DNA of 61,732 nt, from positions 1-61,732 of IMG/VR virus record IMGVR_UViG_3300012943_000035; one strand, given 5' to 3'. The DNA comes from a virus. Its lineage: Duplodnaviria; Caudoviricetes. Below, in pieces: positions 297 to 44,338 of this stretch (position 1 is the stretch's first letter; every line of letters starts with the position of its first letter). The notes under the pieces were generated by a model that had not been told where the DNA came from, did not search any database, and was given only the letters and a program-made list of their open reading frames with translations. The position numbers and the translations under genes were made by a program.

Positions 297-2498
297 TTAA
301 GCGGTTGACTGTGCGCGCTGAAGGGTGATGTCAGCGAGGATGAAGTCAATACCTTCAACAAGCTTCACTACAACGCTAACGTTGATGGTGTTGCCGTTGA
401 TCTGAACAACGAGCTGCTTGAAGCCGTTCTTAGCATCAGAGGTCGAAACCGTGATGCCTTGAGCGAGGTAGGTAGCCAAGATGCTTTCGCAGGTTGACTT
501 AACTTCGGTAGCAGAAACCGTGTTCTTAACGCCGACATAGATGTTCTCAAGCTGAGAACGGAAGTCGTAGGCAAGAACGTCGGCAGCGTACAAGACGTTA
601 CCGCGGTTATAGACCCAGTTTGCATCGCGACCGTAGGTGGTGTTATCCACAACCACACGGAAGCCACCAGACTGAGGAGCTTCCAAGAACGTGATTCCGT
701 TCTGGATGGCGTCATCGTACTGTAGATCAGGATCGAAGTCCACAACGATGTCAGCTTCAGCAGTGGACATTGGCTGTCCAGTCTGGCGAATGCCGGCCGC
801 GTTGAGGTACTTACCAGTCATTGGCAAGCCGATTGGGCTGCCGCCGCGAGCACCGGCAAGCAAGCAAGAACCAGCCCAAGGCTGGAACCACTTGATAGCG
901 CCGTCGCTATCGGTTTGACGGATGTCCTGGATAGAGAGCTGTACGCGAGCAGACGCAAGGTCTTGAGCCTTTTGCTTGCTGTCGTCGTACGAAGCTTTGT
1001 AAGAAAGGTAACCCTGACGCTCAGACTTACGCTTCGTGGTTGCCATCAAAGACAAGTGAGTCTTCACTGCCTGATGAATACCATCGATCGTGTAGTTAGA
1101 AGCTGGATCGGTCAAGCCGTCAGCAGCATCGTCAGAAGCATCGCGGCTCATAAGAGGAACCACGCTGTTAACGCGGAACTTCTCGAACTTGCTCAATGCT
1201 GAAGTGATGTCCGAGGTAGAGGTTGCGCCTTTAGCGCCGCCAGCCAAGAACGTTTCAGTAGCTGCATCTGGAAGACCTACGTACGCGCTAGCGCCAGCAA
1301 GTAACTCAGCAGCAGAAGCTTGAGCGAAGAAGTCACGAACTTCCTTTGCGTCCTTCTTGATTTGAGCAGGAAGAACAGTTGAAGATCCAAGAGCGCCGAG
1401 AGCGCTTACGCGATCAAGGACAGAAGGAGCTAGTTGACCGTAAAGGGTTGAGCCAAGGCTCATGGTCCAGTTACCGCCAGTTGAACTATTGATATAAGCA
1501 GCGAGCTCGCTCAAAGTTGCAAAATCAGCAAGAGTCAAGGTGTATTCTGGCGAAGCATTGTCCGTAAGAATCATTTGAGTTGCGTTAATCGTCACATTTG
1601 GAGCAGTACCGCCGTTACGTCCGATACGAACAACGATGTTTCCACCGACAGTTAGCGACTCATCTACGAGATCGCGCTTGTTCGAAAGGGTAATAACAGC
1701 CATATCTTCTGAAGCAGAAGATACAAGGCCTACAGTAAGACCTGCAGTCGTTGCAAGAGATCCGCTAACAATCTCAAAGTTACGGCCTGAGCCTTCACGA
1801 TGAGGATTAGAGGTTGCAAGACGAGCAAGAGTAACAACTGCTGCGGTATCAGAAGCACCGTTAACAACGAAGCTCATTCCTGCAGGAACAGAAGCTGAAG
1901 ACCAGTTTGCGCCGGTATTCAAAGCAGTCTGAAGCAATGCACGAGTAGTCGTTGCAGCTGGAGCTGTGAAAGTATCGCTCGGTCCACCGTTTACACGGAG
2001 AACAAGAGTTTGGGTTGCAACGTCTGCGCTTACGTCAAATGGAGCCGAAGATCCACGAGTAGCTGAAGTAGCTGGAACAAGAACGTTTTTATACGTTAGC
2101 TTGTTACCACCTTGACCCCATTCAAGAGCGCGCACAGAACCCCAAGTATTAGCAAGGGCGAGCAATGCACGAACTGAAGCGTTCGTCTTATAAATATAAA
2201 CGGCCTGTGCGCCGCCGGGAATGGCGCCGTCAGAGCCTGGAGCAAACAAGAAGTTACACGCGTCGACGAGAGCGCCGGCACGGTATTTCTGTTTGATCTG
2301 AGGAATTTGTTCTGGGCTAAACACGTTGTTAGCGATGTTTACTTCGCTTGCACCGGGTGCACCAGCGTCAGACTCTCCGAAGATTGCGATGATACCAGTT
2401 GGGCTAAGTGGAAAACCACCGCCGAGGTCGATCGAAACCTTAGAGTAAGCGCCTGGTTTGTAAATGGTTGCCCCATTAAAGCTTACATTGATTGCCAT
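297..2498 (-). CDS. Contractile tail sheath protein (733 aa)
   Basis: N-terminal 'FNGATIYKPGAYS' and C-terminal 'NVSVVVKLVEGIDFILADITL' match sheath architecture; size and position next to tube. Confidence 0.9.
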   Translation of the reverse strand: MAINVSFNGATIYKPGAYSKVSIDLGGGFPLSPTGIIAIFGESDAGAPGASEVNIANNVFSPEQIPQIKQKYRAGALVDACNFLFAPGSDGAIPGGAQAVYIYKTNASVRALLALANTWGSVRALEWGQGGNKLTYKNVLVPATSATRGSSAPFDVSADVATQTLVLRVNGGPSDTFTAPAATTTRALLQTALNTGANWSSASVPAGMSFVVNGASDTAAVVTLARLATSNPHREGSGRNFEIVSGSLATTAGLTVGLVSSASEDMAVITLSNKRDLVDESLTVGGNIVVRIGRNGGTAPNVTINATQMILTDNASPEYTLTLADFATLSELAAYINSSTGGNWTMSLGSTLYGQLAPSVLDRVSALGALGSSTVLPAQIKKDAKEVRDFFAQASAAELLAGASAYVGLPDAATETFLAGGAKGATSTSDITSALSKFEKFRVNSVVPLMSRDASDDAADGLTDPASNYTIDGIHQAVKTHLSLMATTKRKSERQGYLSYKASYDDSKQKAQDLASARVQLSIQDIRQTDSDGAIKWFQPWAGSCLLAGARGGSPIGLPMTGKYLNAAGIRQTGQPMSTAEADIVVDFDPDLQYDDAIQNGITFLEAPQSGGFRVVVDNTTYGRDANWVYNRGNVLYAADVLAYDFRSQLENIYVGVKNTVSATEVKSTCESILATYLAQGITVSTSDAKNGFKQLVVQINGNTINVSVVVKLVEGIDFILADITLQRAQSTA

Positions 2499-6727: not shown

Positions 6728-6976
6728 ATGGATGGAATAACGATACTTGAAAGAATTATACAAGAAGAAGGTAGCTGCACCTGGGCAAAACCCAGGAATT
6801 GCGCTATATGTCCTCTTGGAAAGCTTGCCAGAGATCGTAACGGTGGATTCATGAGTTGTGTTGAAGCACTGGCCATTGATGGCCTATCTGAAGTTGAAGC
6901 CGACGCTCGTTATAAGAAAGCCGCTCAAGAGAAGCTGGCTGACTTAACGATAGATCGGCTAATAGGGGAAGAGTGA
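6728..6976 (+). CDS. Small Cys-rich protein
   Basis: LERIIQEEGSC...CAICPL...C; paralog of the next ORF. Confidence 0.65.
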   Translation: MDGITILERIIQEEGSCTWAKPRNCAICPLGKLARDRNGGFMSCVEALAIDGLSEVEADARYKKAAQEKLADLTIDRLIGEE

Positions 6977-7227
6977 TGGCTTTAAGTCAAACTGACAAGG
7001 ACGTACTTGAAGAGATCGTTCAAACCGACGGACAATGCCTAGATTCAAAGCGCTGCGCAAAATGCCCTTTCAGAGCTATATGCTTGCCCGAATTTCTTAA
7101 TCCTGTGCCTCCTAGTCAACCTCAGAGATTGAAGATGGCGCAAGACGTCTTGACACATCATTACCTGATCGACGATGAGATCGAGGTAGAAGATATCAAG
7201 AAGGACTACAAGTGGGACAAAAAGTAA
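6973..7227 (+). CDS. Small Cys-rich protein (tandem paralog)
   Basis: LEEIVQTDGQC...CAKCPF...C. Confidence 0.65.
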   Translation: MMALSQTDKDVLEEIVQTDGQCLDSKRCAKCPFRAICLPEFLNPVPPSQPQRLKMAQDVLTHHYLIDDEIEVEDIKKDYKWDKK

Positions 7228-7531
7228 CTACTCAGGTGATAGACAAGTCGCAGCAAGAGCTAGCGAAGTATGCCCTTTATTTACTACTACTTAGACTTCT
7301 TCATAAGATCCCACCTGCCCAATCAGCCTAGTTCCTGCTAAAATAGACTTAGCTACATTTAAGTAGCACGCCCAACAAAGGGGAAGTCATATGGAACGTC
7401 AAATCGACAAGATTGATGTGAAGCGCGACCACAAGGAACTTATTGCTCTCTTTTACAAGATGGAGCTGAAAGCCTTAATTGCCCGCCTACTTTATGAGCA
7501 CCCTAACTCTCGCCCTGTGTATAAAGAGTGA

Positions 7532-7708
7532 GTGAGCTCCAAGACGCATCTAGAATACATTAAGCAATTTAAGAGACAAGAGTCGCTCTTTAAACTCTTG
7601 TATCTACTTAGAGACTTAGGTATTAAATCGGCTAATAAGCACGCCCCACACGCTTGGGTAGCGTCTATGGACACTTTAACTCAACACATCGCGAGCAAGG
7701 CATGGTAG
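7532..7708 (+). CDS. KLGI-motif microprotein (58 aa, not in ORF track)
   Basis: GTG start; ...ESLFKLLYLLRDLGIKSANK... Confidence 0.65.
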   Translation: MSSKTHLEYIKQFKRQESLFKLLYLLRDLGIKSANKHAPHAWVASMDTLTQHIASKAW

Positions 7709-7989
7709 AACCCTTCTATACCCGACTTTCAATGGATCAGGTAATCGCGACCTATAAACTAGTTAATCTCCTCAGGAGATTGCGAGTTATAGGTACGATT
7801 GAACTTTCAACGGTTGGTTGCACGCCACCGGTTGAAACAATTGGCGATTATGATATCGTCGATATGACCATGAACATCTATGGGATTGAGAAGATTGGAT
7901 ATGATCCAAGCAAAGGGAAGACAGATGTTGAAGACTTATTGGAACAGCTATTCGGAAGAAAAAGTACGAGCCTCAGGGGCACTCCTTAA
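7702..7989 (+). CDS. Hypothetical protein (weak KLGI-type motif)
   Basis: Start overlaps previous stop; YKLVNLLRRLRVIG. Confidence 0.5.
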   Translation: MVEPFYTRLSMDQVIATYKLVNLLRRLRVIGTIELSTVGCTPPVETIGDYDIVDMTMNIYGIEKIGYDPSKGKTDVEDLLEQLFGRKSTSLRGTP

Positions 7990-8215
7990 CATCTTGAAGA
8001 AACTTGGTATCAAGAACTGCGATAAGGCCCTAAGACTCAATTCTCTGTACTCGATCATGTATCAGCAAAAGAAGATGATGCAGGATATCGAACAGCAACT
8101 ATATGGACACTTTAATCTCGGTTACGAGGGCCTGAACGCTCAATTAGGCGCTCAGAAGATTTCCGGTCTAAGCGAACAGCTTCAAAATCAAGACAAGCGC
8201 CCTTCTCGTAAGTAA
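7880..8215 (+). CDS. KLGI-motif protein
   Basis: ALLNILKKLGIKNC; exact start uncertain. Confidence 0.6.
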   Translation: MGLRRLDMIQAKGRQMLKTYWNSYSEEKVRASGALLNILKKLGIKNCDKALRLNSLYSIMYQQKKMMQDIEQQLYGHFNLGYEGLNAQLGAQKISGLSEQLQNQDKRPSRK

Positions 8216-8441
8216 AGCGTGTATCGTTCGGACATTCAGTCTGTCCACATACGCCTACCCAATCAGACATACTGCCGTGTTGGTTCATTGCCTTGGTGGT
8301 GATAGTTTCCAAGTTGATTGTGCAACCCTTCAACTCTCCTCGCTGAATTTCTAACGTGTCGTGAATGTTCACCATCTCAATCGAGTATGGCACAGAACTA
8401 CAACCGCTTAACAACAAGAACAATACTGCTAGCTTCTTCAT
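8112..8441 (-). CDS. Putative lipoprotein
   Basis: MKK + hydrophobic stretch + LSGC lipobox. Confidence 0.65.
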   Translation of the reverse strand: MKKLAVLFLLLSGCSSVPYSIEMVNIHDTLEIQRGELKGCTINLETITTKAMNQHGSMSDWVGVCGQTECPNDTRFTYEKGACLDFEAVRLDRKSSERLIERSGPRNRD

Positions 8442-8779
8442 TTCAAGTACTCCCTAAAGTCTTTTGCGAACCTAACTAGATTCTTTCTTGGCGGCATAGC
8501 ACCTTTACCGTTGGTCAAACGCTCAACTAGCAACTCCTGTGTAACTCCACGAAGCTTAGGTCCGATTGAACCAGGCAGATCAGGATTAGAGTTATGGCAA
8601 GATGTGCATTGAGACTGGTACATGATTCGTCCACGCTTCCACATCTTTGGATCTCTATCGGGTGGAGCAGTAGGTTCTTGGTATGGAGCATGGTTGGCTC
8701 CAACGTAGAACAATCCAGCAAGAACTATTACCGGCAATACCATTAAAGCAATTCGCTTAATCATCTTTCTTATGTCCAA
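8438..8779 (-). CDS. Membrane-anchored monoheme class I cytochrome c
   Basis: N-terminal TM/signal segment, GRIMY..CTSCH heme motif, GPKL and GAMPP (axial Met). Confidence 0.85.
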   Translation of the reverse strand: MDIRKMIKRIALMVLPVIVLAGLFYVGANHAPYQEPTAPPDRDPKMWKRGRIMYQSQCTSCHNSNPDLPGSIGPKLRGVTQELLVERLTNGKGAMPPRKNLVRFAKDFREYLK

Positions 8780-8957
8780 TCGCTTCTAAGTAAGTACTTA
8801 ATACTGAACCTGGCATCATCAAGATGTCTGGCTGTCCATAGTTGCGAAGCATCTTCAACATCGCTCTCTCCATGAAATGAACCTCAGCGCTCTTGATACC
8901 AAGCTTGAAGAGAAGATCTTTCAACGCGATCTTTGCGTCTCCCTTCTTGTCTACCAT
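8757..8957 (-). CDS. KLGI-motif microprotein
   Basis: ALKDLLFKLGIKSA; coupled to neighbouring genes. Confidence 0.65.
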   Translation of the reverse strand: MVDKKGDAKIALKDLLFKLGIKSAEVHFMERAMLKMLRNYGQPDILMMPGSVLSTYLEAIGHKKDD

Positions 8958-9436
8958 GGAATTTCCACTTGCAACGTGATGAAGTCTCTTCCCTTGTTAG
9001 GAAGTTCGAGTCCCGCGCTGCTGATATGCTTGTAAACGAAGCCGATCATGTTCCGACGGTTGTCCCGAAGTCCGATCAGGAAGTCTTGTGTGAACTGGAA
9101 GTTGCCACCGAGCATGGAATCTGGCGATGTGATGAGACCGACGCCCCAAAGGGAGCGAACCACTAGATATCCTGGGTTTACTTCCACTCCGACAGAGTAG
9201 AAACCAAAGCCAGAACTAAGACGGTCATGTCCGCTTGAGTCAGCGAAGAGTCCAAGCTCATATTGATGGATGAAAGGTCCGAACCAATCTTCCTCATATC
9301 CTAGAGAGAAGATCTTTGTCGCAGCGGCTCCGTATTCAGCGCTGCTTAGAATACCTACGCCATACTTACCGAACGAGCCAGCGTTGGCTGTGGTGGAAGC
9401 AATGAGGGCAAGGATACTGACGAAGAGTTTCTTCAT
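8951..9436 (-). CDS. PagL-like outer-membrane lipid A deacylase (acyloxyacyl hydrolase family)
   Basis: Signal peptide, alternating beta-strand pattern, C-terminal aromatic residue, 'YKHISSAGLELPNKG' resembling the PagL HxSNAG..PNxG motif. Confidence 0.7.
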   Translation of the reverse strand: MKKLFVSILALIASTTANAGSFGKYGVGILSSAEYGAAATKIFSLGYEEDWFGPFIHQYELGLFADSSGHDRLSSGFGFYSVGVEVNPGYLVVRSLWGVGLITSPDSMLGGNFQFTQDFLIGLRDNRRNMIGFVYKHISSAGLELPNKGRDFITLQVEIPW

Positions 9437-9448
9437 CAATATGTTATA

Positions 9449-9613
9449 CTATCCAATCTTACGCCAGCTGTCGTTCATGTAGACGTAGGTTCCAGGGATT
9501 CCCTTGTAGACCATGTGGGCTATGTATCCAGCAGGAAAGCTGGGTTGTGGTTTGTTTAGAAGTGTGTAGAGAAACACTATGAGTTGAGCCTTCTTACTTG
9601 CGTCAAGATCCAT
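9449..9613 (-). CDS. Hypothetical microprotein (54 aa, not in ORF track)
   Basis: MDLDASKKAQLIVFLYTLLNK...TYVYMNDSWRKIG; overlaps upstream stop. Confidence 0.5.
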   Translation of the reverse strand: MDLDASKKAQLIVFLYTLLNKPQPSFPAGYIAHMVYKGIPGTYVYMNDSWRKIG

Positions 9614-9797
9614 GCGTCAACCTGTACCTAATGCGTTCACCGTGAATCCTGTGAACATACTCAGTTACTTGTGGCTCTGTCAACAATCTAGCCTTAGCGA
9701 TATCAAGCTTACACAGAAGGATCAAGAGGCACCAAACTGGGTACATACTCTTATTCACTTCTAGCACGACTATCAAATCACTCTTCGTATCGCTCAT
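9603..9797 (-). CDS. KLGI-like motif microprotein
   Basis: CLLILLCKLDIAKA. Confidence 0.55.
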   Translation of the reverse strand: MSDTKSDLIVVLEVNKSMYPVWCLLILLCKLDIAKARLLTEPQVTEYVHRIHGERIRYRLTHGS

Positions 9798-10024
9798 CTA
9801 CGCATCCCATCAGGATTACGCTTGCTTAAGACATAGAGAGACTTATCTGTGTGGATCCAGTATGAGCAGTCGCACTCGCCGCCAGCTCGGTTGATCATGC
9901 CAACCCTATCACCGACGAAGCCAGCCAGCTTGGTGACATTTTCACCTGTGCCGCCGCCGAACGGATCGTGGGTTGTGGTGAACCTACCTTTGGCCTTGTT
10001 AATCTTGAGTGCGGCGATGATCAT
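9794..10024 (-). CDS. Hypothetical protein (paralog of next ORF)
   Basis: HDPFGGG...DGMRR; ATGA coupling. Confidence 0.55.
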   Translation of the reverse strand: MIIAALKINKAKGRFTTTHDPFGGGTGENVTKLAGFVGDRVGMINRAGGECDCSYWIHTDKSLYVLSKRNPDGMRR

Positions 10025-10245
10025 CTTCTCATGCCCTCTGTACTGTGAGGGCCTTTGACGAAGCGATCGTATTGATAGCTGATGCTCTTACTTTTATCCA
10101 GTAAGCCTACGCAGGAATGCAGTTTGTCATCGCGCAAGGTTGCCTTAGAGACCATGAACTGATACCCAACTATGTGTCCATAGCTGTTACCAAACTTGTT
10201 TCCCCACGGGTCGTGAGCCTTGCGGCAGCGTCTACTGATGGTCAT
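10021..10245 (-). CDS. Hypothetical protein
   Basis: HDPWGNK...EGMRR; ATGA coupling. Confidence 0.55.
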   Translation of the reverse strand: MTISRRCRKAHDPWGNKFGNSYGHIVGYQFMVSKATLRDDKLHSCVGLLDKSKSISYQYDRFVKGPHSTEGMRR

Positions 10246-10484
10246 CTATTTATTATACCTTTGGCGGGCCTTCTCATAAGCATGGTCCCAGTCGAGAGCC
10301 ATTGTCCTGACGGCGCCGGTATCTTCATCGACAAACTCAACTGCATCGAAGACTCTAAGCAACATGAGAAGAAGCACGAGCCTTTGAAAAGCCTCTGTGC
10401 GCTCCTTGCGCTTGTCTTTGAAATCTACTACGCAGCGAACCTTTTTCATATGCTAGAAGGCCCCTCCCCGCCTGAGTCGGGAAT

Positions 10485-10787
10485 TTATTTCACTATGTGT
10501 TCACTTACAATTATCTGACCAGAACCTCCACCGCCTCCACCTCCGCCAATCATTTTTACTGATAGCGTCAACGGTACATAAGCGTGCTTGCGGGCAGAGC
10601 GAATACCTAGATCTGCGAGAAGCTTGCAAAGCTTCTGAACCTCGATCGCGGGCAGAATAGTGTAGTGAGCGTTATGTGCGTAGACCAACGGCTTCCCGCC
10701 GAGGCATATCTTCACGGTCCCACCAGATACTACGCGGCCGGCTCCACCGGCTCCGCCAGATTTACTATAACCTTTATGATTCGTCAC
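10485..10787 (-). CDS. KLGI-motif protein with glycine-rich segments
   Basis: KLCKLLADLGIRSARK between GGAGGAG and IGGGGGGGGSGQIIVSE. Confidence 0.65.
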   Translation of the reverse strand: MTNHKGYSKSGGAGGAGRVVSGGTVKICLGGKPLVYAHNAHYTILPAIEVQKLCKLLADLGIRSARKHAYVPLTLSVKMIGGGGGGGGSGQIIVSEHIVK

Positions 10788-10956
10788 TGACGTTCCTCAC
10801 GGTCGTGTAGTAGCGTGGCACGGGCATTATTGCTCCGGCAAACGACATGTGCAACCTGTAATCTCTTGCAGACTTTATCCCTAGCTTATATAGTAGCTGG
10901 AGCAAAGGCCATACATGTGGATCCCACTTGTTCATACGACCCCAACAGGCAAACAC
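10774..10956 (-). CDS. KLGI-motif microprotein
   Basis: PLLQLLYKLGIKSARD. Confidence 0.65.
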   Translation of the reverse strand: MFACWGRMNKWDPHVWPLLQLLYKLGIKSARDYRLHMSFAGAIMPVPRYYTTVRNVSDES

Positions 10957-11150
10957 TTCTTGGCCGAGCGAATACCAAGCTTCGCGAGCAAGTAACAGAG
11001 TTTCTGTGCCTCAGTGGCCTTCGGCCCAAACTCTAGCAACGCTCGTATCCTGGTTGCTAGCTGTTGATCGCTCTCCCCCGGCAAGCGGGAGAGGCCATAC
11101 AAACCGGCAAAGTTCTCGATCACGGTTTTATTGATGTAATTGAAAGACAT
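10932..11150 (-). CDS. KLGI-motif microprotein with baseplate-like segment
   Basis: GLSRLPGESDQQLATRI + KLCYLLAKLGIRSAKK. Confidence 0.65.
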   Translation of the reverse strand: MSFNYINKTVIENFAGLYGLSRLPGESDQQLATRIRALLEFGPKATEAQKLCYLLAKLGIRSAKKCLPVGVV

Positions 11151-11159
11151 GGAGAGATT

Positions 11160-11405
11160 TTACTTGCGCGGACGCGGGGAGCCGAGGATGGTGGTTGGTG
11201 ACATGAATATGAGAGGTCGGCGGATTGGCCCATCGCCTAGTGGTTGGCCTTTGTACATGAGGCGACCAGGGTAGGTGTACCCACAAACCCCTGCCACACT
11301 AATAGCCACGCTGGTGAGGGGCTTGATCGTGCTCTTGATGCCGAGAAGCCGCAAGAGATGGAGTAGCTTCTCCGCTTGAAGGTGAGGGTGCTTGCCTAGT
11401 TTCAT
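11160..11405 (-). CDS. KLGI-motif microprotein
   Basis: KLLHLLRLLGIKST; GGAGG RBS. Confidence 0.65.
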   Translation of the reverse strand: MKLGKHPHLQAEKLLHLLRLLGIKSTIKPLTSVAISVAGVCGYTYPGRLMYKGQPLGDGPIRRPLIFMSPTTILGSPRPRK

Positions 11406-11587
11406 AGTTCGGCCTCCGACACAAATACATAGTCGTAAGAGTAGTGCCTGGCCTTTGTGATGCCGAGCTTAGCTAATAGCAGGAGCAAGGGCTTGCGTTT
11501 TGGGTTTGTGTACCAATGAGCTTTTGGGTCCCCGTAATAGCCAGGAAGCTTGATATTAGCTCCGTTGAACTTGATGTTAATTGCCAT
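11402..11587 (-). CDS. KLGI-motif microprotein with sheath-like N-terminus
   Basis: MAINIKFNGANIKLPGYY + PLLLLLAKLGITKA. Confidence 0.7.
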   Translation of the reverse strand: MAINIKFNGANIKLPGYYGDPKAHWYTNPKRKPLLLLLAKLGITKARHYSYDYVFVSEAEL

Positions 11588-11813
11588 AGTAGTTGAAGTG
11601 GCAGCGTATGCCGAGTTTGTGTAGCAATACTAGTAGTGAGCGATAGTGAAGACTATGTGAACCCGCGATTGGGTTCTTGACGTGAGGGAGGTAGACCGCG
11701 GTGGCCGCGATATGTTTGATGAGGCGATCGGTGGCACCATGATAGATGGCTACGTCGTAGATGTAGTTAGCAAGGTGCTGGTTGTATTGCTCGGCGCGAG
11801 AAGGTGTATCCAT
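11577..11813 (-). CDS. KLGI-motif microprotein
   Basis: Start at TAATG overlap; SLLVLLHKLGIRCH. Confidence 0.6.
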   Translation of the reverse strand: MDTPSRAEQYNQHLANYIYDVAIYHGATDRLIKHIAATAVYLPHVKNPIAGSHSLHYRSLLVLLHKLGIRCHFNYYGN

Positions 11814-11956
11814 TAGTATAGCACACAGATGCCAAGCTTGTAAAGCAAGGTGCAGAACGCGAGCCACTGTGGGGTTGCTTGCATTGCGATGGCGTAATCG
11901 GACCCTTTGTAATTAGGATCTGAGGTTGAGTATGTGTAGGCACGAGCGTAGCGCAT
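11813..11956 (-). CDS. KLGI-motif microprotein (47 aa, not in ORF track)
   Basis: MRYARAY...WLAFCTLLYKLGICVLY. Confidence 0.6.
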   Translation of the reverse strand: MRYARAYTYSTSDPNYKGSDYAIAMQATPQWLAFCTLLYKLGICVLY

Positions 11957-12983
11957 AAATTTTATATTTAAATTATACGAGGGTACCGGTACCCATGTGA
12001 ACCTATTAAACGGCGGAGTAGGGATATGAGTGCCACCTTGGCGGGGTGGTGAATGCCGTATGGTGTGATTATGTAATGTGAGAATGGAACCTTTTGCATT
12101 TTATATTTATACCGGTGTTGGGTACAGGGTACCTGAGTGAACCTATTAGAAAAGCTCATGTGCGCGGTAGGCGCGCAGCGAGTACTGGTCCCGACTCAAG
12201 GGATCCCTTGTAAGCCAAGGCCAGCGGGTGGCTAAAATGACACAGCACCTGCTAGACCTGAGACTAGGAGAACGTATGTGGACAAGACGAGTCGGTTATG
12301 CCTACTATATCGCCAGTGTTCTGAACAGACCTATCACCTACAGGCGAGCATGTGCGATCGCCAAGTCCTTCAGCGAGGACGATCTGCGCCGAATCTACAT
12401 GAGGGTGAAAGCGAGGAACGTATGAAGAGGATTGCTGATCAGGTATTGATCTTGGAAGCGATCGGTCAGGTTAGGACTGAGCTGAGAGAGGACATGTCGT
12501 TCAAGGACATGATGGATGTGATGACTAGGTTGGCAACTCTCTACTCACTCCTGAACGTACACCAACTAAGAGATATCGCGGTTGACGCGGACATGAGAGA
12601 TATTAACGAAAGGAAGGTAGCATGAGCAAGAAATTAATGCAGGCGTTCGAGGATCATACTGAGTGGATGGACATGAGAGAGCATGCGATCGACTTCATCG
12701 ACACCTACACCAACGATGAGATCGCTCAGATGGTCCGCGAGAAGATCCTCACCATCGAAGAGGTTGAGGCAGGTCTCCGCAGAAAGCAGGGTCTATGAGG
12801 ACTTGGTTTGACTACACGATCGAAGCTGGACTTATACTCCTCGCCATCTACGCTGTGGTAGAAGCAGGACGAATCATCGGATCAATCTCCAACATCCCGC
12901 TATTACAGTAGGGAACAGCTGTCCTTAGGGGCAGAGCACGGGACAGGTGGCGCAAGCTGCCTGTCCCTATGCCCGTTCCCTAG

Positions 12984-12999: not shown

Positions 13000-13137
13000 A
13001 GGCCTCCCGACTCTATATCTAGTTGTAAGCGATAACAAGATCGGTAACGAAACAAATAACTGATCTTGAAATCCTGACCCTAAACAAGATCATAAGCGAA
13101 ATACACCTCGCTAATGATCACAAACAAAGGAGCAATC

Positions 13138-13617
13138 ATGTCGAACAAAATGTCCCAAAAAGAAGCGGTCTTCTCGGCTGTCACGAACGTCTGCGGAACT
13201 CAAGATGCTGCATACATGCCTTCCAAGGATGAGCGCGCATCGGTGAACCAGATCTTGTTCGAAGGTTTCCGAAGCGGATCGATCGAGTACAAGGGCGATG
13301 TTGCTGCACTGAGCGACTCTGACCTGAAAGGTTATGTGTCTGGTCTTCAGAGCAACTGGCTTCGCAAGGACAAGCGCCTGAACGGCAACGTCCAGTATGT
13401 CGCCAAGAACCCTGGCAGTCGTGCAGGTTCGACCGATCCACAGATCAAGGCAATGCGAGTCCTTCTCAGCACTCAAGAAGATCCTGCCAAGCGCGCTGAG
13501 ATCGAGTCCTTCATCTCCGCTCGTCTCGCAACGATCAAGCCGACCAAGACGACCGAGTTGACCGACGAACAGAAAGCAGTCCTCGAAGCTGCTGGTCTCG
13601 GCCACTTCGTAGAGTAA
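13138..13617 (+). CDS. 'QKEAV...NWLRKDKRLNG' family protein, paralog 1
   Basis: AAGGAG RBS; strong similarity to 19847, 24450 and 39395 ORFs. Confidence 0.8.
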   Translation: MSNKMSQKEAVFSAVTNVCGTQDAAYMPSKDERASVNQILFEGFRSGSIEYKGDVAALSDSDLKGYVSGLQSNWLRKDKRLNGNVQYVAKNPGSRAGSTDPQIKAMRVLLSTQEDPAKRAEIESFISARLATIKPTKTTELTDEQKAVLEAAGLGHFVE

Positions 13618-15083: not shown

Positions 15084-15375
15084 GTAGTAGCTATAGGTTT
15101 GATGGGAAATTCTCTAAGAAAGACATTTTAGGTGCCGTTAAGAAGTGTGGGTTGGAGGTGGCTAAGTCTGATTCCTCAAGTTCCACTCAGTTCTGTATCA
15201 CTGATGGTGAGTGCTACATCTGGGCTTATAACGACCGAAAAGGCGTATATGGGTTTGAGCGCTATGGAAACAACTATGATGCTTATGAAGCTATCTTGCT
15301 ACCCCTAGCGGAGGAGCTTGGAGCTGACGTCATCAACGAGGATGAGGAGCAACCTGAGGATATAGGTGAGGAGGA

Positions 15376-15606
15376 ATGAGCGGAAACCATAAGCGTAAGG
15401 ATAGGAATAGGTGGGTTGAGCGACGTGCTCACAGTGCCTTATGCTTGCTTCATCTGTTGGGAGATTTAGGTATTAAGAGCGCTGATGGGGTTGAATCTAA
15501 GTGGAATCCTGACTTCATAGAGGTCTATACAACTCGACATACTAGAGATATGGCCGAACGATTGCATCGCTTATGGAGCTCGGAGCAGAGACTGCCCAGA
15601 TCCTGA
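15376..15606 (+). CDS. KLGI-motif microprotein
   Basis: CLLHLLGDLGIKSA. Confidence 0.65.
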   Translation: MSGNHKRKDRNRWVERRAHSALCLLHLLGDLGIKSADGVESKWNPDFIEVYTTRHTRDMAERLHRLWSSEQRLPRS

Positions 15607-16601: not shown

Positions 16602-17711
16602 TGGCCACCAAGAGAAAGAAGAAGCAAGCTAAAGAGATCAGACATAGAACTGCCAGACGTAAGGTGATGACTCGTCTACGTAGGATCATGGGGCAGTTAG
16701 ATACCAACTGTAAGGTCACTGATTTTAACTATTGGTACACAGTATTCACTCATCTTAAAACAAGTGAACTAGATTTTGTGAATGAAATCATTAGTCTTGG
16801 TCAATATGAAGACATAACTGACGATACTACAGAGGCTTATAAAGCCATATTGATGGAAAGAACTTTGGGATTAACCAATGAATAGGTATCACTTCCACGA
16901 TACTCATCTAGTTGATATAAATGGTTGGCGCTTCAATTTCAAGCGAATGACTGCGGATCGTCTTGAACCCACTGGACACACAAGGAATAACATTTGGTTG
17001 ATCTGGCTCGATAAAGAGAAGTGTATCACTGCGCCTGCTCAAGATCTAGCAGACATTCATCCTCAAACTACGTCCAATCATGGAACTTGGGATTGGAATA
17101 TGTGGTTTAGCTTCTTCTCTCCGCCTGAACATTACTACAATCAAATGATCAACGAAGCTTACATGAACTACTTAATAGAGAAGTCACTTAATTCCTGAAC
17201 ATATATCTCTGCATAACGGAGGCAATATGAAATACGAAGTTTTGATTCGTTGGAACAACCCAGGTCCCACAAAGTACCTGATGGCGAGCGAGTCTAATCT
17301 CGATCTCAACGCTGCGTTTGCTAAGGCTGATGAGATGCTCAAAGTGCATAGCGATTGTTTCGCACAGATTGTGCAGAGTAATACCAATGAAATCGTCGCC
17401 ACGATCAACTAGACTGCACGCGAGAGGAATGAACAGAGCTCTAGCTCTAATTATCCTCTTCGTGGCAAGCTTTATCGAGTTGCTGCTCCTGGTGTACATG
17501 GTAGCTCATGGATTTAGAGCTGCTGGTCTCACTGTGCTAGTGCTGTTCATGTGGAATCTCTCTGCTATCATTGCTATGACTGTCTACATATTGAGTCGTG
17601 GTTCTAGTCAACAGAGTGGATACATGGAAGTTTCGAACTACTTGAATCTCAACAAGATGGCTAACAAAGATAAGTGATCCGAACATATATACGGATAGGA
17701 GGAATGCGCTT

Positions 17712-18212
17712 ATGAACAGACTAGGTTGGTTAGAACGAGAGCTTGAAAAAGATAACTTAGATCCTTCTCTCCGTGAGAAGTATGATGCAGAAGCGAACGC
17801 TATCTGTGATCGTATGTCTGAACTTCAAGCTAAGAATAAGGTAGCAGCTGAGGAACAGCGTCGTCTCGATAAGGTTGCTGCAGATCAACGAGCAGAAGAG
17901 CAACGCTTTGAGAAAGAAAGACTTGACATTCAATACGTTGAGGAGTCTTTACACGATCTAGCTATCAAGATTGCCGGTGACAATGCAGACCAATGGCTTG
18001 AGACTGCTCTCAAGTTGTATACGATTGATCCCAACGATAACTTAGTTACTTCAATCGCCCATGGTCCTGAGCATCCAGAGTCTTGGGCTTGTGATACGTA
18101 CCTTGATGCAAAGAAGAAGATCTTGCAGTTGATTCGCTACAAGTATCGCGATCACTTTGAACGCGGTCACGACTTCTTCTACTATCCTGAAGGTGAGGAG
18201 CAAGCGTCATGA
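17712..18212 (+). CDS. Hypothetical coiled-coil protein
   Basis: AGGAGG RBS. Confidence 0.65.
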   Translation: MNRLGWLERELEKDNLDPSLREKYDAEANAICDRMSELQAKNKVAAEEQRRLDKVAADQRAEEQRFEKERLDIQYVEESLHDLAIKIAGDNADQWLETALKLYTIDPNDNLVTSIAHGPEHPESWACDTYLDAKKKILQLIRYKYRDHFERGHDFFYYPEGEEQAS

Positions 18213-18352
18213 ATGTCATCGTGTGGTTTATTGGTATGTACCTCATGTTTAACGGCCATTTCTTTCTTGGCATGATCTTAATGTTCGCCGCATTATCCCT
18301 TAAATAAGTCCGAACGAAGCGCTAGACTCATGGACGAGTCGCCCTGCCAGCG

Positions 18353-18368
18353 CTGACACTGCTACGCC
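18353..18368 (+). repeat. Invariant 16-mer, copy 4
   Basis: Exact match. Confidence 0.9.
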
Positions 18369-19016
18369 ACAGCCCACTGTGGATCCCGAACCTAAATCAT
18401 TACATAAGAGGAGGAAATGGTATGAGCGCAACAGCTGATAGAAGCGTTAGACATAAGTTCGTGTGGGCAAACGTCCACACTGTATATAAGACTGGCAATG
18501 GACACGCTGAGTTTCTTGCTCTAATTAACAAGCCTGAAGTAGATAAGAAATGGGTTGCTCAAGCAATGAGTGAACCTAAAGAAAGTTGGATCACAAGGTT
18601 GTTCAAAAGATTTAAATGAGTGTAGTAAACGAGTTCAAAGTAAAGAACGTCAAATACGGCTCTGATCCCAAGCAAGTCTACATGATAGACGAGCACGGGA
18701 ATCGGAGCGTATTTGTTTTTGATTTCTACTGTCACGATCGTCCAATGGCGACTAAGTTTAACTTCTTCTTCAACATGCATAACAAGCAACTCCTGATCGT
18801 ATATGGTTCCAATGGATCACATCGAGCAGAGACATATGAATGTGGATTGATGAAGTTCTGGGTATCTGGTGATATGCCGGTTCCATCTTGTAACTGGTTG
18901 CAGAACATGCCTGAGCTAATGAATAATATAAGCGAGCAGTTCAAAGAACAACTCGCGTCCTTCACAATAGACCAGATCATCAATGAGCCAGATTATGAGT
19001 CAGTATAATAATTTGG

Positions 19017-19163
19017 ATGGATGAGGAATTAGAGTACGACATAATCAACCGATACGCCATAAAGACTGAGCGATTGATCGATCGCCTGAAACCAGGCATT
19101 AGAGGTTATGCCTCTGTCTTCAACCTAATTACTCTCTTACAGAAACTAGGGATCAAGATATGA
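19017..19163 (+). CDS. KLGI-motif microprotein (48 aa, not in ORF track)
   Basis: ...SVFNLITLLQKLGIKI; TATAAT 7 nt upstream of ATG. Confidence 0.6.
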   Translation: MDEELEYDIINRYAIKTERLIDRLKPGIRGYASVFNLITLLQKLGIKI

Positions 19164-21817: not shown

Positions 21818-21853
21818 AACCCGGATCCCAACTTGGGGTCCGGGTTTTTACTT
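21818..21853 (+). terminator. Intrinsic terminator
   Basis: AACCCGGATCCCA-ACT-TGGGGTCCGGGTT + T-run. Confidence 0.75.
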
Positions 21854-21854
21854 T

Positions 21855-22043
21855 ATGTTCATACCACACGAGAAAAAGAAATCACTCACCGCTCTCCTGA
21901 ATGTGTTATCCAAGCTCGGCATAAACTGCCGGTTCGAGAACCTCACTATATCTATATTTACTAGAGGTTATGAGATAACACTAAAAGGATCTGAGCGAGA
22001 TAAGAATATCTCGGATCACAGAAAGAAAGAATTTAAGTTTTAA
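21855..22043 (+). CDS. KLGI-motif microprotein
   Basis: ALLNVLSKLGINCR. Confidence 0.55.
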   Translation: MFIPHEKKKSLTALLNVLSKLGINCRFENLTISIFTRGYEITLKGSERDKNISDHRKKEFKF

Positions 22044-23620: not shown

Positions 23621-24116
23621 TCCCGAATCTAAAGATCGCTAACGGAGGTATTATGCTTACTGCTCAACAAGCTCGCGACTTAAGAGATGCCTTAGCTAAA
23701 CAAAGCGTAGAAGCTGAGCTATATAAGATACTCCAAAACGTTGCGGAAGAAGCTATCTCAGCCAAACCTAGATCCTATGTCTATACTGATCTAGACTTTA
23801 CTGATATCAAAGTTGATTACATTGTCAACAGACTACATGGAATGGGCTATGTGGTTGAATGCAATAAGTACCCAGAAGATGGGTATAGTTCTCTAACTAT
23901 TCGATTTTAAGAAGGAAATATGCATCAAGACTGTGATCGTTGTGGTGTCTTTGGTGTCTGTGACAAGAAAGGCATCTGCACCGATTGTCGTGCAGAAGAA
24001 GAGTATGAACAAGACGGAACGCAAGAAACTGAGGAAGCTGAAGAAGAGGAAAGTTAAGCCTCGTATTCCCATTCCTCCGCCTAGTCGAAGGCATAAGACC
24101 AAGAAAGACTATAAGC

Positions 24117-24398
24117 GTGTCAACCGAATCGACCCAACAACTGAAGATTGATGATATCGAGCGGTTTGATGCGGTTGAGAATCTAATGTCTCTCTTGCAA
24201 AAACTCTCTATCAAGTCTGCAAAACCTGCTCTTAAAGATCTAGTAATGGATCTTAAGAGCGAATTCTATTGCGGTGACTGCGAAGCTCCTCTCGATGATT
24301 GCTATGGTCACCCAGACTATGACGATTATCCTGACTATGAGGCTGATTACGACGAGCACGCAGACGTCACCGATGAGAAACCAACAAAAAATGGATGA
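24117..24398 (+). CDS. KLGI-motif protein with acidic tail
   Basis: NLMSLLQKLSIKSAK; CGDC..C. Confidence 0.6.
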   Translation: MSTESTQQLKIDDIERFDAVENLMSLLQKLSIKSAKPALKDLVMDLKSEFYCGDCEAPLDDCYGHPDYDDYPDYEADYDEHADVTDEKPTKNG

Positions 24399-24449: not shown

Positions 24450-24893
24450 ATGACTCAAAAAGATGCAGTTTTTAGTGCAGTCTCTCAGATTTTGGCCAGC
24501 AACAACATTTCGTTTAACCCAAGCTCTACCAACGTAGCAAGTCTCTTGACGCGTGAACTGCGCTCACAGATCAATGCTCGTTTGGTCGCTGATTTCACCT
24601 CTGGATCAGTCGAGATGAGCGATGATGCTAAGACCAAGCTCAATGATGTGGCCGAACTTCGTGCTTACATCTCCGGACTGGTAAGTAACTGGGTTCGCAA
24701 GGATCCACGTTTGAACGGTGGAACTGTTCTTGCGACGACTGGTTCTTCTACCACCAATGCTAGCAGCAAGACCTTGAAAACTGATCCTCAGCTTCAAGCT
24801 CTTCGTAAGCTTCATAAGGCTCAGGTCGAACCTTCTAAACGTCTTGAGATCCAAGCTCACATCGATCGCCGCGTTGAAGAATTAAGCGGGTAA
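24450..24893 (+). CDS. 'QKEAV...NWLRKDKRLNG' family protein, paralog 3
   Basis: MTQKDAVFSAV...YISGLVSNWVRKDPRLNGG; GGAG RBS. Confidence 0.8.
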   Translation: MTQKDAVFSAVSQILASNNISFNPSSTNVASLLTRELRSQINARLVADFTSGSVEMSDDAKTKLNDVAELRAYISGLVSNWVRKDPRLNGGTVLATTGSSTTNASSKTLKTDPQLQALRKLHKAQVEPSKRLEIQAHIDRRVEELSG

Positions 24894-24906
24894 GTATAAC
24901 GACCTG

Positions 24907-25047
24907 ATGAGAATAGAGAAAGCTCAGTCTTGCGCCAACCTCATCAGATTGCTTTATAAGCTCGGCATCATTGATCACAACGAAGCTTCGAAATTCATAG
25001 ACCATCTACAAATTATGGTCATGCAATCCGAATCTAATTCTCAATAG
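24907..25047 (+). CDS. KLGI-motif microprotein (46 aa, not in ORF track)
   Basis: QSCANLIRLLYKLGIID; TATAAC 6 nt before ATG. Confidence 0.6.
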   Translation: MRIEKAQSCANLIRLLYKLGIIDHNEASKFIDHLQIMVMQSESNSQ

Positions 25048-28776: not shown

Positions 28777-29271
28777 ATGAATGTCGAAGTCTATTGTGAT
28801 GGGTCAGCAACCATTGCCACACTTCCTGGAGGTTGGGCGTTCGTCATACTGGTTGACGGCGTTAAGTACACGGAAGGATCTGGGCACATTGCTAAAGCTA
28901 CTAATAATATTGCGGAACTTACAGCTGCAATCAGTGGACTCGAGTTTGTCCAAAACGATCCAGGGCTCGCACATAGCACATCTATTACACTTGTATCGGA
29001 TTCACAACTCACACTTCGGTATGCAAGTGGAGAGTATCAATGCCGAAAATATCACCTTGTCCCTCTCTTCTGTAAACTCCGTCAACTTCACGACAAGCTT
29101 AAGATTAAAACAAGATGGGTAAAGGGTCACTCAGGAGAACCAACTAATGAGCGATGCGACGAACTTGCTAAGGCTGCTCGCGGAGGGACAACCGTTACCG
29201 CACAGAGTTCAAGCCTGTCGGTCTCTACGGTTCCTTATGAGGACACTCTCGAAGCTGGGGATCACGAGTAG
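28777..29271 (+). CDS. rnhA: Ribonuclease HI
   Basis: YCDGS, TNNIAEL, SDSQ, WVKGHSG..NERCDELA. Confidence 0.93.
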   Translation: MNVEVYCDGSATIATLPGGWAFVILVDGVKYTEGSGHIAKATNNIAELTAAISGLEFVQNDPGLAHSTSITLVSDSQLTLRYASGEYQCRKYHLVPLFCKLRQLHDKLKIKTRWVKGHSGEPTNERCDELAKAARGGTTVTAQSSSLSVSTVPYEDTLEAGDHE

Positions 29272-29282
29272 CAACGAATTAC

Positions 29283-29591
29283 ATGAACTTACCAACTCGA
29301 TTCGCTATACAAATAGACGCTTCAGGAAAAAAGATGTACCCACCGGAGCGGATCATGATGATCAAGGCTCTACGGGACATGACAAGAGTTCTTGGCAAAC
29401 TTGGACTTAAATCCTGCTATCATGATAACCAAGGATATATAGACTTCTACAAGCAGAACAGTCCAGTTCCAAAGACTTGGATCAATCTACCTGATCGCTA
29501 TAGATATGGTTGGGGTTTAAAAGAAGCTAAGGATGCAGTTGAGAACTATCTAGACAGGTTAAACGCCAAAGCTAGATCCACAACCACATGA
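29283..29591 (+). CDS. bL12 (L7/L12) C-terminal-domain-like protein interrupted by KLGI-type motif
   Basis: IKALRDMT...GWGLKEAKDAVE with RVLGKLGLKSC in between. Confidence 0.6.
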   Translation: MNLPTRFAIQIDASGKKMYPPERIMMIKALRDMTRVLGKLGLKSCYHDNQGYIDFYKQNSPVPKTWINLPDRYRYGWGLKEAKDAVENYLDRLNAKARSTTT

Positions 29592-32656: not shown

Positions 32657-32685
32657 ATGGGAGTCACTCTGACTCCCATTTTTAT
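32657..32685 (+). terminator. Intrinsic terminator
   Basis: ATGGGAGTCA-CTC-TGACTCCCAT + TTTT. Confidence 0.7.
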
Positions 32686-32719
32686 TTCAGCCAGTACAAT
32701 CTACAAAAGGGAGCACAAG

Positions 32720-39875: not shown

Positions 39876-39954
39876 CGCAGGGATCGAGCAACGGCGGCTC
39901 ACATGGCTCATAACCATGACGGTGTACTAGATTCGACTTCTAGCCCTGCAACCA
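39876..39954 (+). tRNA. tRNA-Met(CAT), initiator type
   Basis: C1:A72 mismatch, anticodon arm CATGG-CTCATAA-CCATG, T arm CTAGA-TTCGACT-TCTAG, encoded CCA. Confidence 0.9.
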
Positions 39955-39958
39955 ACTT

Positions 39959-40093
39959 ATGGCTGAAACAAGAAAACTTCTATATCTTCTTGCTCTACTA
40001 GAGATCAGATCAGCCTACATCGAATACAATAAGAACAGAGGAATGGGTTGCAATATGTGTGGCTATTCCCAATGGGGTTGCGACTACTGCTAA
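39959..40093 (+). CDS. KLGI-like motif microprotein with CxxC pairs (44 aa, not in ORF track)
   Basis: KLLYLLALLEIRSA...CNMC...CDYC. Confidence 0.55.
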   Translation: MAETRKLLYLLALLEIRSAYIEYNKNRGMGCNMCGYSQWGCDYC

Positions 40094-44323: not shown

Positions 44324-44332
44324 TGGTATAAT
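44324..44332 (+). promoter_or_regulatory. Extended -10 promoter (TGGTATAAT) for nadM
   Basis: TGnTATAAT consensus 7 nt upstream of the conserved leader. Confidence 0.65.
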
Positions 44333-44338
44333 GAAATT

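Follow-up and report, generated by a model that had tools for sequence, protein, structure and literature searches.

The question raised here is what a myovirus would gain from a series of small ORFs that share one short peptide. The window (the whole stretch analysed, 61,732 nt) is a 61.7-kb fragment of a ~175-kb soil myovirus whose closest named relative is Myxococcus phage Mx1. It encodes numerous microproteins with a common 13-residue block, approximately LLxLLxKLGI(K/R)SA (the "tag"). A preliminary description, made from the letters alone, noted resemblances of the untagged parts to capsid, fibre, and baseplate proteins, and read the set as a decoy or interference array against defence sensors such as Avs, CapRel, or DSR2. 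The strings it quoted are present in the ORFs it named, all on the minus strand: NYGQPDILMMPGSV in 8757–8957, GGAGGAG and VKMIGGGGGGGGSGQIIVSE in 10485–10787, and IENFAGLYGLSRLPGESDQQLATRI in 10932–11150. The resemblances were compared with virion proteins from four related contigs, two of which are complete genomes. Features are listed in Table 1.

Table 1. Tagged ORFs and associated features of the window. MCP, major capsid protein.
Feature	Position	Strand	Details
Tail sheath gene	297–2498	-	phrog_279 tail sheath, E 5.5e-31; first 20 codons copied in m11402
Tagged ORF	7532–7708	+	Tag 7586–7648; converges on minus-strand array
Tagged ORF	7880–8215	+	Tag 7973–8035; converges on minus-strand array
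m8757, 66 aa	8757–8957	-	21-aa tag window 8871–8933, then segment like MCP ~234–267 (about 8784–8873)
Tagged microprotein, 64 aa	9603–9797	-	Tag window 9675–9737; G001 ortholog, 48% over 50 aa
m10485, 100 aa	10485–10787	-	Tube-N-terminus-like aa 14–45 (about 10653–10748); tag 10578–10640; glycine-rich aa 75–99 (10491–10565)
Tagged microprotein, 60 aa	10774–10956	-	Tag window 10852–10914
m10932, 72 aa	10932–11150	-	Baseplate_J-type motif aa 11–37 (11040–11120), then tag 10947–11009
Tagged microprotein, 81 aa	11160–11405	-	Tag window 11313–11375
m11402, 61 aa	11402–11587	-	Just outside 8757–11405; sheath N-terminus copy 11528–11587; tag 11435–11497
Array member, 96 aa	11577–11867	-	Tag 11583–11645, C-terminal
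Array member, 47 aa	11813–11956	-	Weak tag
Sigma-70-like promoter match	11972–12001	-	TTCACA, 18 nt spacer, TATAAT; 11/12; just upstream of dense part of array
Tagged small frames (tag HMM)	15370–15603, 18999–19160, 21819–22040, 24042–24395, 24886–25044	+	
Tagged small frames (tag HMM)	29123–29407, 39944–40090, 40033–40239, 45755–46033, 46529–46828	+	

The Shared Tag

A regular-expression scan of the window gave 18 matches, 16 of which were kept and two discarded as chance. An improved HMM, constructed partly from copies in the window itself, yielded 20 frames at E ≤ 1e-4 plus four at E 0.04–0.2, with no matches at E ≤ 0.1 in the reversed window or in three codon-block shuffles. All tagged frames of the window are on the locally coding strand. 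The tagged microproteins, of about 40–110 aa, form a lineage-specific family: when 1.84 billion representatives were searched with the tag, 16 of the 17 matches at E ≤ 1e-3 were proteins of 48–100 aa, and 13 of the 15 loci found by a degenerate DNA scan share proteins with the phage's lineage at E ≤ 1e-8, although two of these 13 do so by only one and three distant matches. L027, from the same scan, shares no protein with the lineage; L013 is not among the loci of the scan. No Pfam or PHROG family was found for the tagged microproteins, nor any paper describing them, and neither database matched them to an anti-defence family.

At the nucleotide level, the first two codon positions hold the information content of the tag, the third contributing ~0 bits, and its leucine codons are a mixture of CTN and TTR. 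The tag is therefore a peptide and not a DNA repeat, with selection acting at the protein level; as the stop codons are mixed, there is no recoding.

At the protein level, the tag is modelled at low confidence as an amphipathic helix ending at the glycine. To the eye, the block is like the opening of many helix-turn-helix (HTH) motifs ("helix, Gly, Ile, polar"), and it might be part of such an element, or a relic of the helix-strand unit of a LAGLIDADG homing endonuclease, in small regulators whose virion-like pieces are incidental. Sub-threshold matches to LAGLIDADG_3 (PF14528) do occur on small ORFs in two of five records (best 13.2 and 12.3 bits, against a cut-off of 22.5, none in the window); the G006 frame, the one of the two read for it, has a tag-like motif. 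The top match in a search of solved structures, a weak one, is an intein endonuclease (E 0.36). We nonetheless consider nucleic-acid binding highly improbable: no Pfam family is matched by more than one of 40 tag segments; the Pfam models for helix-turn-helix, HeH/SAP, and Rho_N match none of these 40 and none of 20 whole microproteins, the latter being free of HTH matches at E ≤ 1 or 0.1; the sequence following the tag is not conserved, often with a proline within 6–9 residues; and the virion pieces would be left unexplained.

Capsid-Like Members

The 481-aa capsid protein of this lineage is Herelleviridae-like, as the preliminary description had proposed, its best solved relative being Gp6.1 (9vel, E 3e-68), followed by 5lii. 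The best-conserved branch of the tag family (the mini-MCP branch) has 79 metagenomic relatives in a set of 5.8 billion proteins, and 72 of the 79 retain both the tag and a capsid block, in assemblies from four sources. A profile of 38 family members aligns with the MCP (hhalign 97.8%, E 7.5e-13, 73 columns), collinear with residues 1–73, and the top match of the family among 177,635 solved-structure sequences is again an MCP (9vel_C, E 0.019). In the same-order alignment the tag falls opposite MCP residues ~22–37, just before a conserved GGxLQxESL block. The tag alone has no profile match to the MCP, so the argument for its MCP origin is one of position in this alignment. Given the collinearity and this position, a duplicated 5′ end of the capsid gene is the most likely origin of the tag family. 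New genes would then clearly have arisen from that end and later recombined with fragments of other genes.

m8757 resembles a different part of the capsid protein. On its own it scores only 3.8 bits against the MCP profile; a four-member group that includes it aligns with MCP residues 234–267 (hhalign 66%, E 5.5e-5, 34 columns), and a homolog (40% over 58 aa) is found at the syntenic place in the relative G006. By eye, its motif appears nearer to the Gp6.1 sequence than to the lineage's own MCP. The 234–267 segment probably lies buried within the fold and is not an epitope at the surface, judging from general knowledge of the HK97 fold (the MCP model has a pLDDT of 35).

Homology to the HK97-fold MCPs (phrog_752) holds for fragments only (73 or 34 columns of 481). 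Compared with the SPO1-like (Herelleviridae-type) MCPs Gp6.1 and 5lii, the mini-MCP branch is homologous to residues 1–73 and the m8757 group to ~234–267; the microproteins, which cover no more than ~75 of ~480 residues, cannot adopt the fold. As full MCPs (about 450–490 aa, comprising N-arm, E-loop, P, and A domains) they were rejected, being of 40–120 aa only.

If the tag does derive from a propeptide-like segment at the MCP N-terminus, it could bind scaffold or prohead protease, and the microproteins could enter the prohead with it, or serve the protease as substrates or as regulators. The placement of the tag before the conserved capsid block is consistent with such a role in head assembly. 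So are the recurrence of the MCP N-terminal motif in a G006 head-module protein (568 aa), close to its C-terminus, as expected of shared recognition by protease or scaffold, and the presence of a head maturation protease gene in the window (32657–33388). A family member lies within the head-gene operon in contig L016, and a degenerate one likewise in G006, which fits a morphogenetic role better than one in conflict.

A precedent is in T4, where the internal proteins IPI–IPIII are likewise unrelated small proteins of a large myovirus that share a short peptide; the peptide here is linked by position to the MCP N-terminal region. The T4 capsid-targeting sequence, however, is N-terminal and is removed at a defined protease site, whereas the tag here is internal or C-terminal in most members. 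Since it starts at residues 12–90 of the ORFs, it was rejected as a T4-type signal at the extreme N-terminus. There is, moreover, no obvious reason for pieces of sheath, tube, baseplate, and fibre to enter heads, and most copies are in a hypervariable region and are not kept between close relatives. On balance we think a head-assembly role unlikely.

Tail-Like Pieces

The N-terminus of m11402 is close to that of the window's own sheath, with 12 of 18 residues identical and start aligned with start; against sheath residues 1–20 it gives hhalign 87% (P 3.8e-6) and 11.3 bits in the profile test. Its DNA differs from that of the sheath gene mainly in the third letters of codons, with no relation in the sequence upstream. 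As a tail sheath (phrog_279) m11402 was rejected: it shares residues 1–20, with no sheath domains beyond the N-terminal arm.

m10485 appears to combine pieces of two proteins. Its N-terminal part is matched by the tube family with hhalign P 0.0012 over 32 columns and 7.9 bits in the profile test, and the tube match among the chimeras reaches 95.4% (E 1.8e-8). Its C-terminal part corresponds to the start and end of a fibre glycine-rich domain that has lost its middle: the two flanks match residues 156–171 and 318–333 of the product of G006 54949–55950 (phrog_863, tail fiber assembly), in low-complexity sequence. A homologous ORF with tag and collapsed glycine-rich part (43% over 44 aa) is found at G006 11520–11999. 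The preliminary description had these ends collapsed around the tag; they are in fact collapsed after it.

In m10932 the resemblance is to a baseplate motif. Direct matches, to the baseplate wedge family phrog_5857 (E 0.26) and by tblastn to gpJ of Acidithiobacillus phage AcaML1 (E 0.2), are weak. Against the Baseplate_J region of the lineage, which was picked because it bears the motif, hhalign gives P 8e-4 over 13 columns. The baseplate family had been named correctly, the motif lying inside the domain by which the lineage's 2366-aa baseplate protein matches Pfam Baseplate_J (E 2e-16). The motif is kept in three tagged proteins; the ortholog P0016 and a 171-aa ORF of G005 keep it together with the tag. 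Membership of m10932 itself in Baseplate_J (PF04865) was rejected, with no Pfam hit at E ≤ 1 and only a motif of 13–27 aa shared.

To judge from these sequence comparisons, the resemblance of the microproteins to virion proteins is above chance, although unevenly so, the Baseplate_J and glycine-rich cases being weak or of low complexity. Seven of 63 micro-ORFs (34 tagged frames of relatives and 29 window ORFs, about eight of these untagged) scored at least 10 bits against 85 family profiles, all seven to MCP, tube, or sheath. Untagged natural frames did so in 3 of 900 cases, one of the three being an array member with a degenerate tag, and among 756 shuffles the 99th percentile lay at 6.5 bits. 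Among the 85 families the pieces come from virion proteins only, with none from the replication or metabolic genes that were equally available, and residues conserved in the full-length virion proteins are also kept in the pieces. The profile searches named as a check in the preliminary description thus did find similarity to the lineage's own virion genes, so that the outcome it named as a refutation did not arise and its descriptive part is supported.

The resemblance holds for about four ORFs; about 16 of the 20 in the window have no detectable virion piece. The ORF at 9603–9797 has no profile match of at least 3 bits, the best scores of those at 10774–10956 and 11160–11405 were equalled in 80 and 152 of 200 shuffles, and none of the ten scattered plus-strand frames between 15370 and 46828 (tag HMM E 1e-8 to 9e-5) is above shuffle controls against virion proteins.

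Genomic Setting

The phenomenon extends past 8757–11405, the part that had been singled out: 8757–11956 is an expanded array of tagged ORFs in an accessory region, with further copies elsewhere in the phage. This region is hypervariable and shared with morons. The relative G001 has no counterpart of 10485–11956, despite 90% identity in the adjoining virion protein, and has different tagged ORFs in its place; the 96-aa array member has a homolog at G006 97387–97704 (29% over 62 aa, E 8e-4). The sigma-70-like site upstream of the array is a consensus match only, the region holding 11 such sites against a shuffle mean of 8.9, no excess.

Fast turnover between relatives could mean that the microproteins are functionless, decaying remnants left by partial duplication and illegitimate recombination where junk is tolerated, with the tag slowest to decay. 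Many are singletons: among the 5.8 billion proteins of the set, m10932 lacks a relative of similar length, and its exact sequence occurs once. Several degenerate tags occur as well. Against this, third codon positions are free while amino acids are fixed across more than 40 tags, the mini-MCP branch has kept tag and capsid block together, the frames are intact, with overlapping start and stop codons (ATGA), and the pieces are restricted to virion proteins. We regard this explanation as very unlikely. Even without a function, the tag and its 79-member capsid-derived branch define a searchable family among unannotated small ORFs of phages.

Possible Functions

The best explanation, to which we give about an even chance, is that the microproteins compete by mimicking segments of virion proteins, all on a common handle. 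Each would offer its virion segment to the usual partner of that segment, which may be a host sensor, an adjoining subunit, or a scaffold or protease. A second contact, common to all, would come from the tag, and the microproteins would in effect compete, either as decoys or as dominant-negative caps. The large share of tagged ORFs without a virion piece counts against it, as do the missing profile match between tag and MCP, the members in head-gene operons, the probably buried MCP 234–267 segment, and the weak or low-complexity Baseplate_J and glycine-rich resemblances. If the microproteins work as mimics, the virus makes small competitors, with one handle in common, out of conserved pieces of its own structural proteins; this would bear on the reading of capsid, tube, and sheath proteins by bacterial immunity, and on competition among related phages during assembly. 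They would also be natural short peptides for binding tests with capsid, tube, and sheath subunits.

More tentatively, the array may be an evolving library of mimics of the phage's own and its competitors' virion proteins, in which a handle from the capsid propeptide region docks to a common effector or carrier, neutralizing immune sensors or the assembly machinery of co-infecting relatives; it would be a modular counter-recognition system at the protein level, with no described phage equivalent.

A specific sub-case of mimicry is the anti-defence decoy, in which microproteins occupy host sensors of capsid, tube, sheath, or baseplate segments without activating them, the tag blocking activation or recruiting a second factor. 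Such sensors exist: CapRel and Lit respond to capsid protein and DSR2 to tail tube. That a capsid piece of 29 aa can be recognized is demonstrated by the Gol peptide of T4. Pieces of hallmark virion proteins with their conserved residues kept would suit decoys, as would the apparent closeness of m8757 to Gp6.1, the hypervariable setting beside morons, and the promoter match upstream. On the other hand, Gol activates Lit, an example of how a short capsid peptide can set off such a system instead of blocking it; at least one member is in a late head operon; and most tagged ORFs offer a sensor no recognizable virion piece. We therefore judge the decoy sub-case rather improbable.

For mimicry in its general form, the nearest parallels are with small proteins of other kinds. 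The microProteins (miPs) of plants and animals are small proteins from the interaction segment of a larger protein, thought to compete for its partners. The tagged microproteins are likewise homologous to segments of larger proteins, these being putative interaction surfaces; unlike miPs, they are phage-encoded, arrayed, and fast-evolving, and combine many source proteins with one tag. Phage anti-defence mimics and competitors such as Ocr, or DSAD1 acting on DSR2, are also small accessory proteins of variable regions that occupy a binding site intended for another molecule, but they have no sequence relation to the microproteins, and are not known to carry pieces of their own virion or a common tag. 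Gol, a ~30-aa stretch from the N-terminal part of the mature T4 capsid protein gp23, is recognized with EF-Tu by the Lit protease and shows that so short a stretch can by itself be a specific recognition element; it belongs to the intact capsid protein and brings about host suicide, whereas the capsid pieces here are separate gene products fused to a tag.

The tag as a conserved peptide

Profile comparisons show the tagged microproteins to be a family, apparently derived from the capsid protein, in which conserved virion-protein pieces occur. What they share is a block of the form ~LLxLLxKLGI(K/R)SA (the tag), which recurs in ORFs of positions 7500-12200. A regex search over six frames of the window gave 18 matches; two, antisense to large genes beyond 50 kb, were excluded, and 16 retained. 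An HMM enlarged with copies from relatives detected 20 window frames at E<=1e-4, plus four weaker ones (E 0.04-0.2), whereas the reversed window and three codon-block shuffles yielded nothing at E<=0.1. The top scores of this HMM are partly circular because the model includes the window's own copies, which does not touch the controls or the extra non-seed matches. Every tagged frame is on the same strand as its neighbouring genes.

In the 16 copies, information is found at codon positions 1 and 2, with ~0 bits at position 3, and the leucines are encoded by both CTN and TTR; it is therefore the peptide that is conserved. A DNA repeat or regulatory cassette is ruled out by this restriction of conservation to the first two codon positions. 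Stop-codon recoding, or one broken long gene, was also considered and is ruled out, since TAA, TGA, and TAG stops all occur and table 11 yields intact large genes. Several array genes are joined by ATGA overlaps, an arrangement that suggests translational coupling.

The virus and its relatives

The IMG/VR virus record that makes up the whole window (61,732 bases) is estimated to be 36% complete. Besides the tail sheath, its large ORFs encode virion proteins, a head maturation protease (at 32657-33388), DNA ligase, RtcB, and NAD-salvage enzymes. Among named phages, the closest is Myxococcus phage Mx1 (169.6 kb; sheath identity 33%), in whose genome no tag was found, and blastn of positions 6900-12300 gave no match to named phages. 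There are two complete metagenomic relatives, G005 (174,974 bases) and G006 (176,504 bases, with terminal repeats), at 60-85% protein identity; the gene order of G006 is that of the window. Two closer fragments, G001 and G002, run in the opposite direction and contain the tail and baseplate module absent from the window.

Features of the window and of related loci
Feature	Positions	Strand	Remarks
Tail sheath	297-2498	minus	Large ORF
c-type cytochrome (small, membrane-anchored) and lipoprotein-like ORF	8438-8779 and 8112-8441	minus	Inside array; CxxCH, Cytochrome_CBB3 E 1e-8; lipobox-like LSGC
m8757	8757-8957	minus	Tagged microprotein
PagL-like protein	8951-9439	minus	162 aa, signal peptide; lipid A 3-O-deacylase, E 2e-9
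Untagged, paralog-like ORFs	9794-10024 and 10021-10245	minus	Adjacent; 76 and 74 aa; HDP(F/W)G block and GMRR end in both; no family match
m10485	10485-10787	minus	Tagged microprotein
m10932	10932-11150	minus	Tagged microprotein
m11402	11402-11587	minus	Tagged microprotein
Sigma-70-like promoter match	12001-11972
Conserved segment	12163-12236		74 nt, 97% identity to G001; flanks far more diverged
Multicopy protein	13114-13617	plus	167 aa
RtcB RNA ligase and NAD-salvage pair	42252-47814	plus	Pair: cytidylyltransferase-Nudix fusion, nicotinamide phosphoribosyltransferase
Tagged ORFs	45755-46033, 46529-46828		Between and over the NAD-salvage genes
Head-module protein, L038 (G006)	17388-19091	minus	568 aa; …AGYGGAG…GGVLQAESL… near C-terminus
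Tail-tube paralogs, L042 (G006)	84941-86867	minus	Diverged; 2-3 in a row after sheath gene
Tail-tube paralogs, L003	13797-15090		As L042

Distribution of the tag

Searched as a degenerate DNA pattern, the tag occurs at 15 IMG/VR loci, and at many of them two or three copies are clustered. Thirteen of these have proteins in common with the window lineage, though L015 shares only one and L022 only three distant matches; L027 has no proteins in common with it and no HMM-level tag. Against 1.84 billion representative proteins, a profile of 40 tags gave 17 matches at E<=1e-3, 16 of them proteins of 48-100 aa of the same tagged kind. The remaining one, P0002, ranked first: it is 447 aa long and unrelated, with '…SRLGIKSATSDYP…' in its four tandem repeats, and was apparently hit by chance through this repetition. 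Of the 40 tag segments, at most one matched any given Pfam family, the best PHROGs match was only E 0.076, and Pfam and PHROGs searches with the microproteins gave nothing significant; the ESM Atlas held no usable match to the microprotein at 10774-10956. A literature search found no paper on such a tag, on capsid-fragment microproteins, or on such a system; preprint 10.1101/2023.04.06.535777 proved unrelated.

The capsid-related branch

The best-conserved tagged branch (mini-MCP) aligns in the same order with residues 1-73 of the major capsid protein (MCP), whether six members (96.6%, E 7e-10) or 38 members (97.8%, E 7.5e-13) are used, and its top match among solved structures is a capsid protein, 9vel_C. 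Of 79 branch members found at E<=1e-3 in a set of 5.8 billion proteins, 72 carry the tag; none of the 79 is annotated as anything beyond "hypothetical protein." The alignment places the tag opposite capsid residues ~22-37, directly ahead of the conserved GGxLQxESL block. Compared by itself with the MCP profile, the tag profile gave no match, so descent of the tag from a capsid segment is inferred from position only. Some members have a block resembling MCP 234-267 immediately after the N-arm block, and so amount to "mini-capsid" proteins minus the middle.

At some mini-MCP N-termini, DH..DA.RY gave a likeness to terminase (E 0.055), which was dropped as probably coincidental: the helix aligns with the N-terminal helix of the MCP itself. 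Structure models of a mini-MCP protein (pLDDT 50.6, tag region helical) and of the capsid protein (pLDDT 35) were respectively too poor to use and unusable for mapping the pieces onto the fold.

A family member is also found inside the head operon of locus L016 and, in degenerate form, in that of G006, adjoining a 568-aa protein. The C-terminal part of the 568-aa protein repeats the capsid N-terminal motif, the pattern that would be expected of a common protease or scaffold recognition site.

Virion-like pieces in the array microproteins

The comparison took in 19 array ORFs and a further 10 frames, tagged or weakly tagged. They were set against every long frame of the window and its relatives, with shuffle controls, and also against 85 profiles from G006-seeded families. 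The preliminary description had proposed that m8757 carries a fragment resembling a capsid protein, m10485 one resembling the two ends of a glycine-rich tail-fibre domain, and m10932 one resembling a baseplate wedge motif; profile searches against the lineage's own virion proteins did find similarity, to capsid, tube, and sheath.

The capsid resemblance of m8757 is supported. Its true homolog in G006, at the syntenic place, has kept the NYGQPD block as well as the tag; in both complete genomes the MCP (phrog_752, E 8e-56) comes next among the matches, at the same residues; and m8757, this homolog, and two more tagged proteins built alike match MCP 234-267 as a group (66%, E 5.5e-5). Among solved structures, the m8757 pair found its best match in a designed helical repeat rather than in a capsid protein.

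The start of m11402 aligns with that of the sheath, with 12 of 18 residues identical (hhalign 87%, P 3.8e-6). At the DNA level, most differences from the sheath gene fall at third codon positions, and the sequences upstream are unrelated; this piece is therefore an old sheath copy kept at the protein level. A complex prediction with sheath residues 24-733 scored 0.00 and was counted neither for nor against.

In relatives the sheath is followed by tube paralogs, and residues 14-45 of m10485 align with their N-terminus (P 0.0012); one of these paralogs has a weak Phage_tube_2 match. The C-terminus of m10485 consists of the start and end strands, joined, of a glycine-rich domain of ~180 aa in a G006 fibre-module protein. 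This stretch is of low complexity, and shuffle tests exaggerate how significant it is; even so, G006 has a second tagged ORF in this collapsed form. The motif ahead of the tag in m10932 is kept in its ortholog P0016 and in a 171-aa tagged ORF of G005, but direct matches to the baseplate wedge PHROG (E 0.26) and the gpJ gene (E 0.2) are poor, and no baseplate match was found among solved structures. It falls within the Baseplate_J domain of the lineage's 2366-aa protein; profile comparison with that region (P 8e-4, 13 columns) is only supportive, because the region was chosen for the motif. The remaining tagged ORFs in 8757-11405 showed nothing above controls against virion proteins.

The pattern recurs in relatives: for 8 of 34 distinct tagged frames, at most one of 100 shuffles reached the real score, and a tag-plus-tube pair matches the tube family (95.4%, E 1.8e-8). 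In the profile test, 7 of 63 micro-ORFs scored at least 10 bits, all against capsid, tube, or sheath and none against replication or metabolic families. Untagged natural frames of like size did so in 3 of 900 cases: two are shadows of a paralogous family, and the third, an array ORF of G006, combines a degenerate tag with a piece of the capsid N-arm. The protein at 13114-13617 belongs to a family of which relatives have several copies each (three in G002); the protein's antisense frame is also long and conserved, a source of false "hits" in the controls.

We infer that the tagged microproteins act as mimics on a common handle. Their targets may be host immunity, the assembly of a competitor or of the phage itself, or the prohead.

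Genomic neighbourhood and expression signals

G001 lacks a counterpart of the dense stretch 10485-11956, despite 90% identity of a neighbouring virion protein, and has different tagged ORFs in its place. The number of sigma-70-like promoter matches in the region is not above that in shuffles, and a late-promoter-like word upstream of the sheath gene occurs only once in the window. A sequencing-run search listed no RNA run; the sole match listed was one soil-metagenome DNA run, maybe the source.

Interspersed in the array are genes for a PagL lipid A deacylase and a cytochrome c. For the cytochrome and lipoprotein-like ORFs, no counterpart was found in G001 or G002. The PagL-like protein is also kept in G001 (75%) and G006 (63%), and points to a Gram-negative host and phage-driven LPS modification. 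The conserved segment at 12163-12236, between the minus-strand array and plus-strand genes, may be a shared control region.
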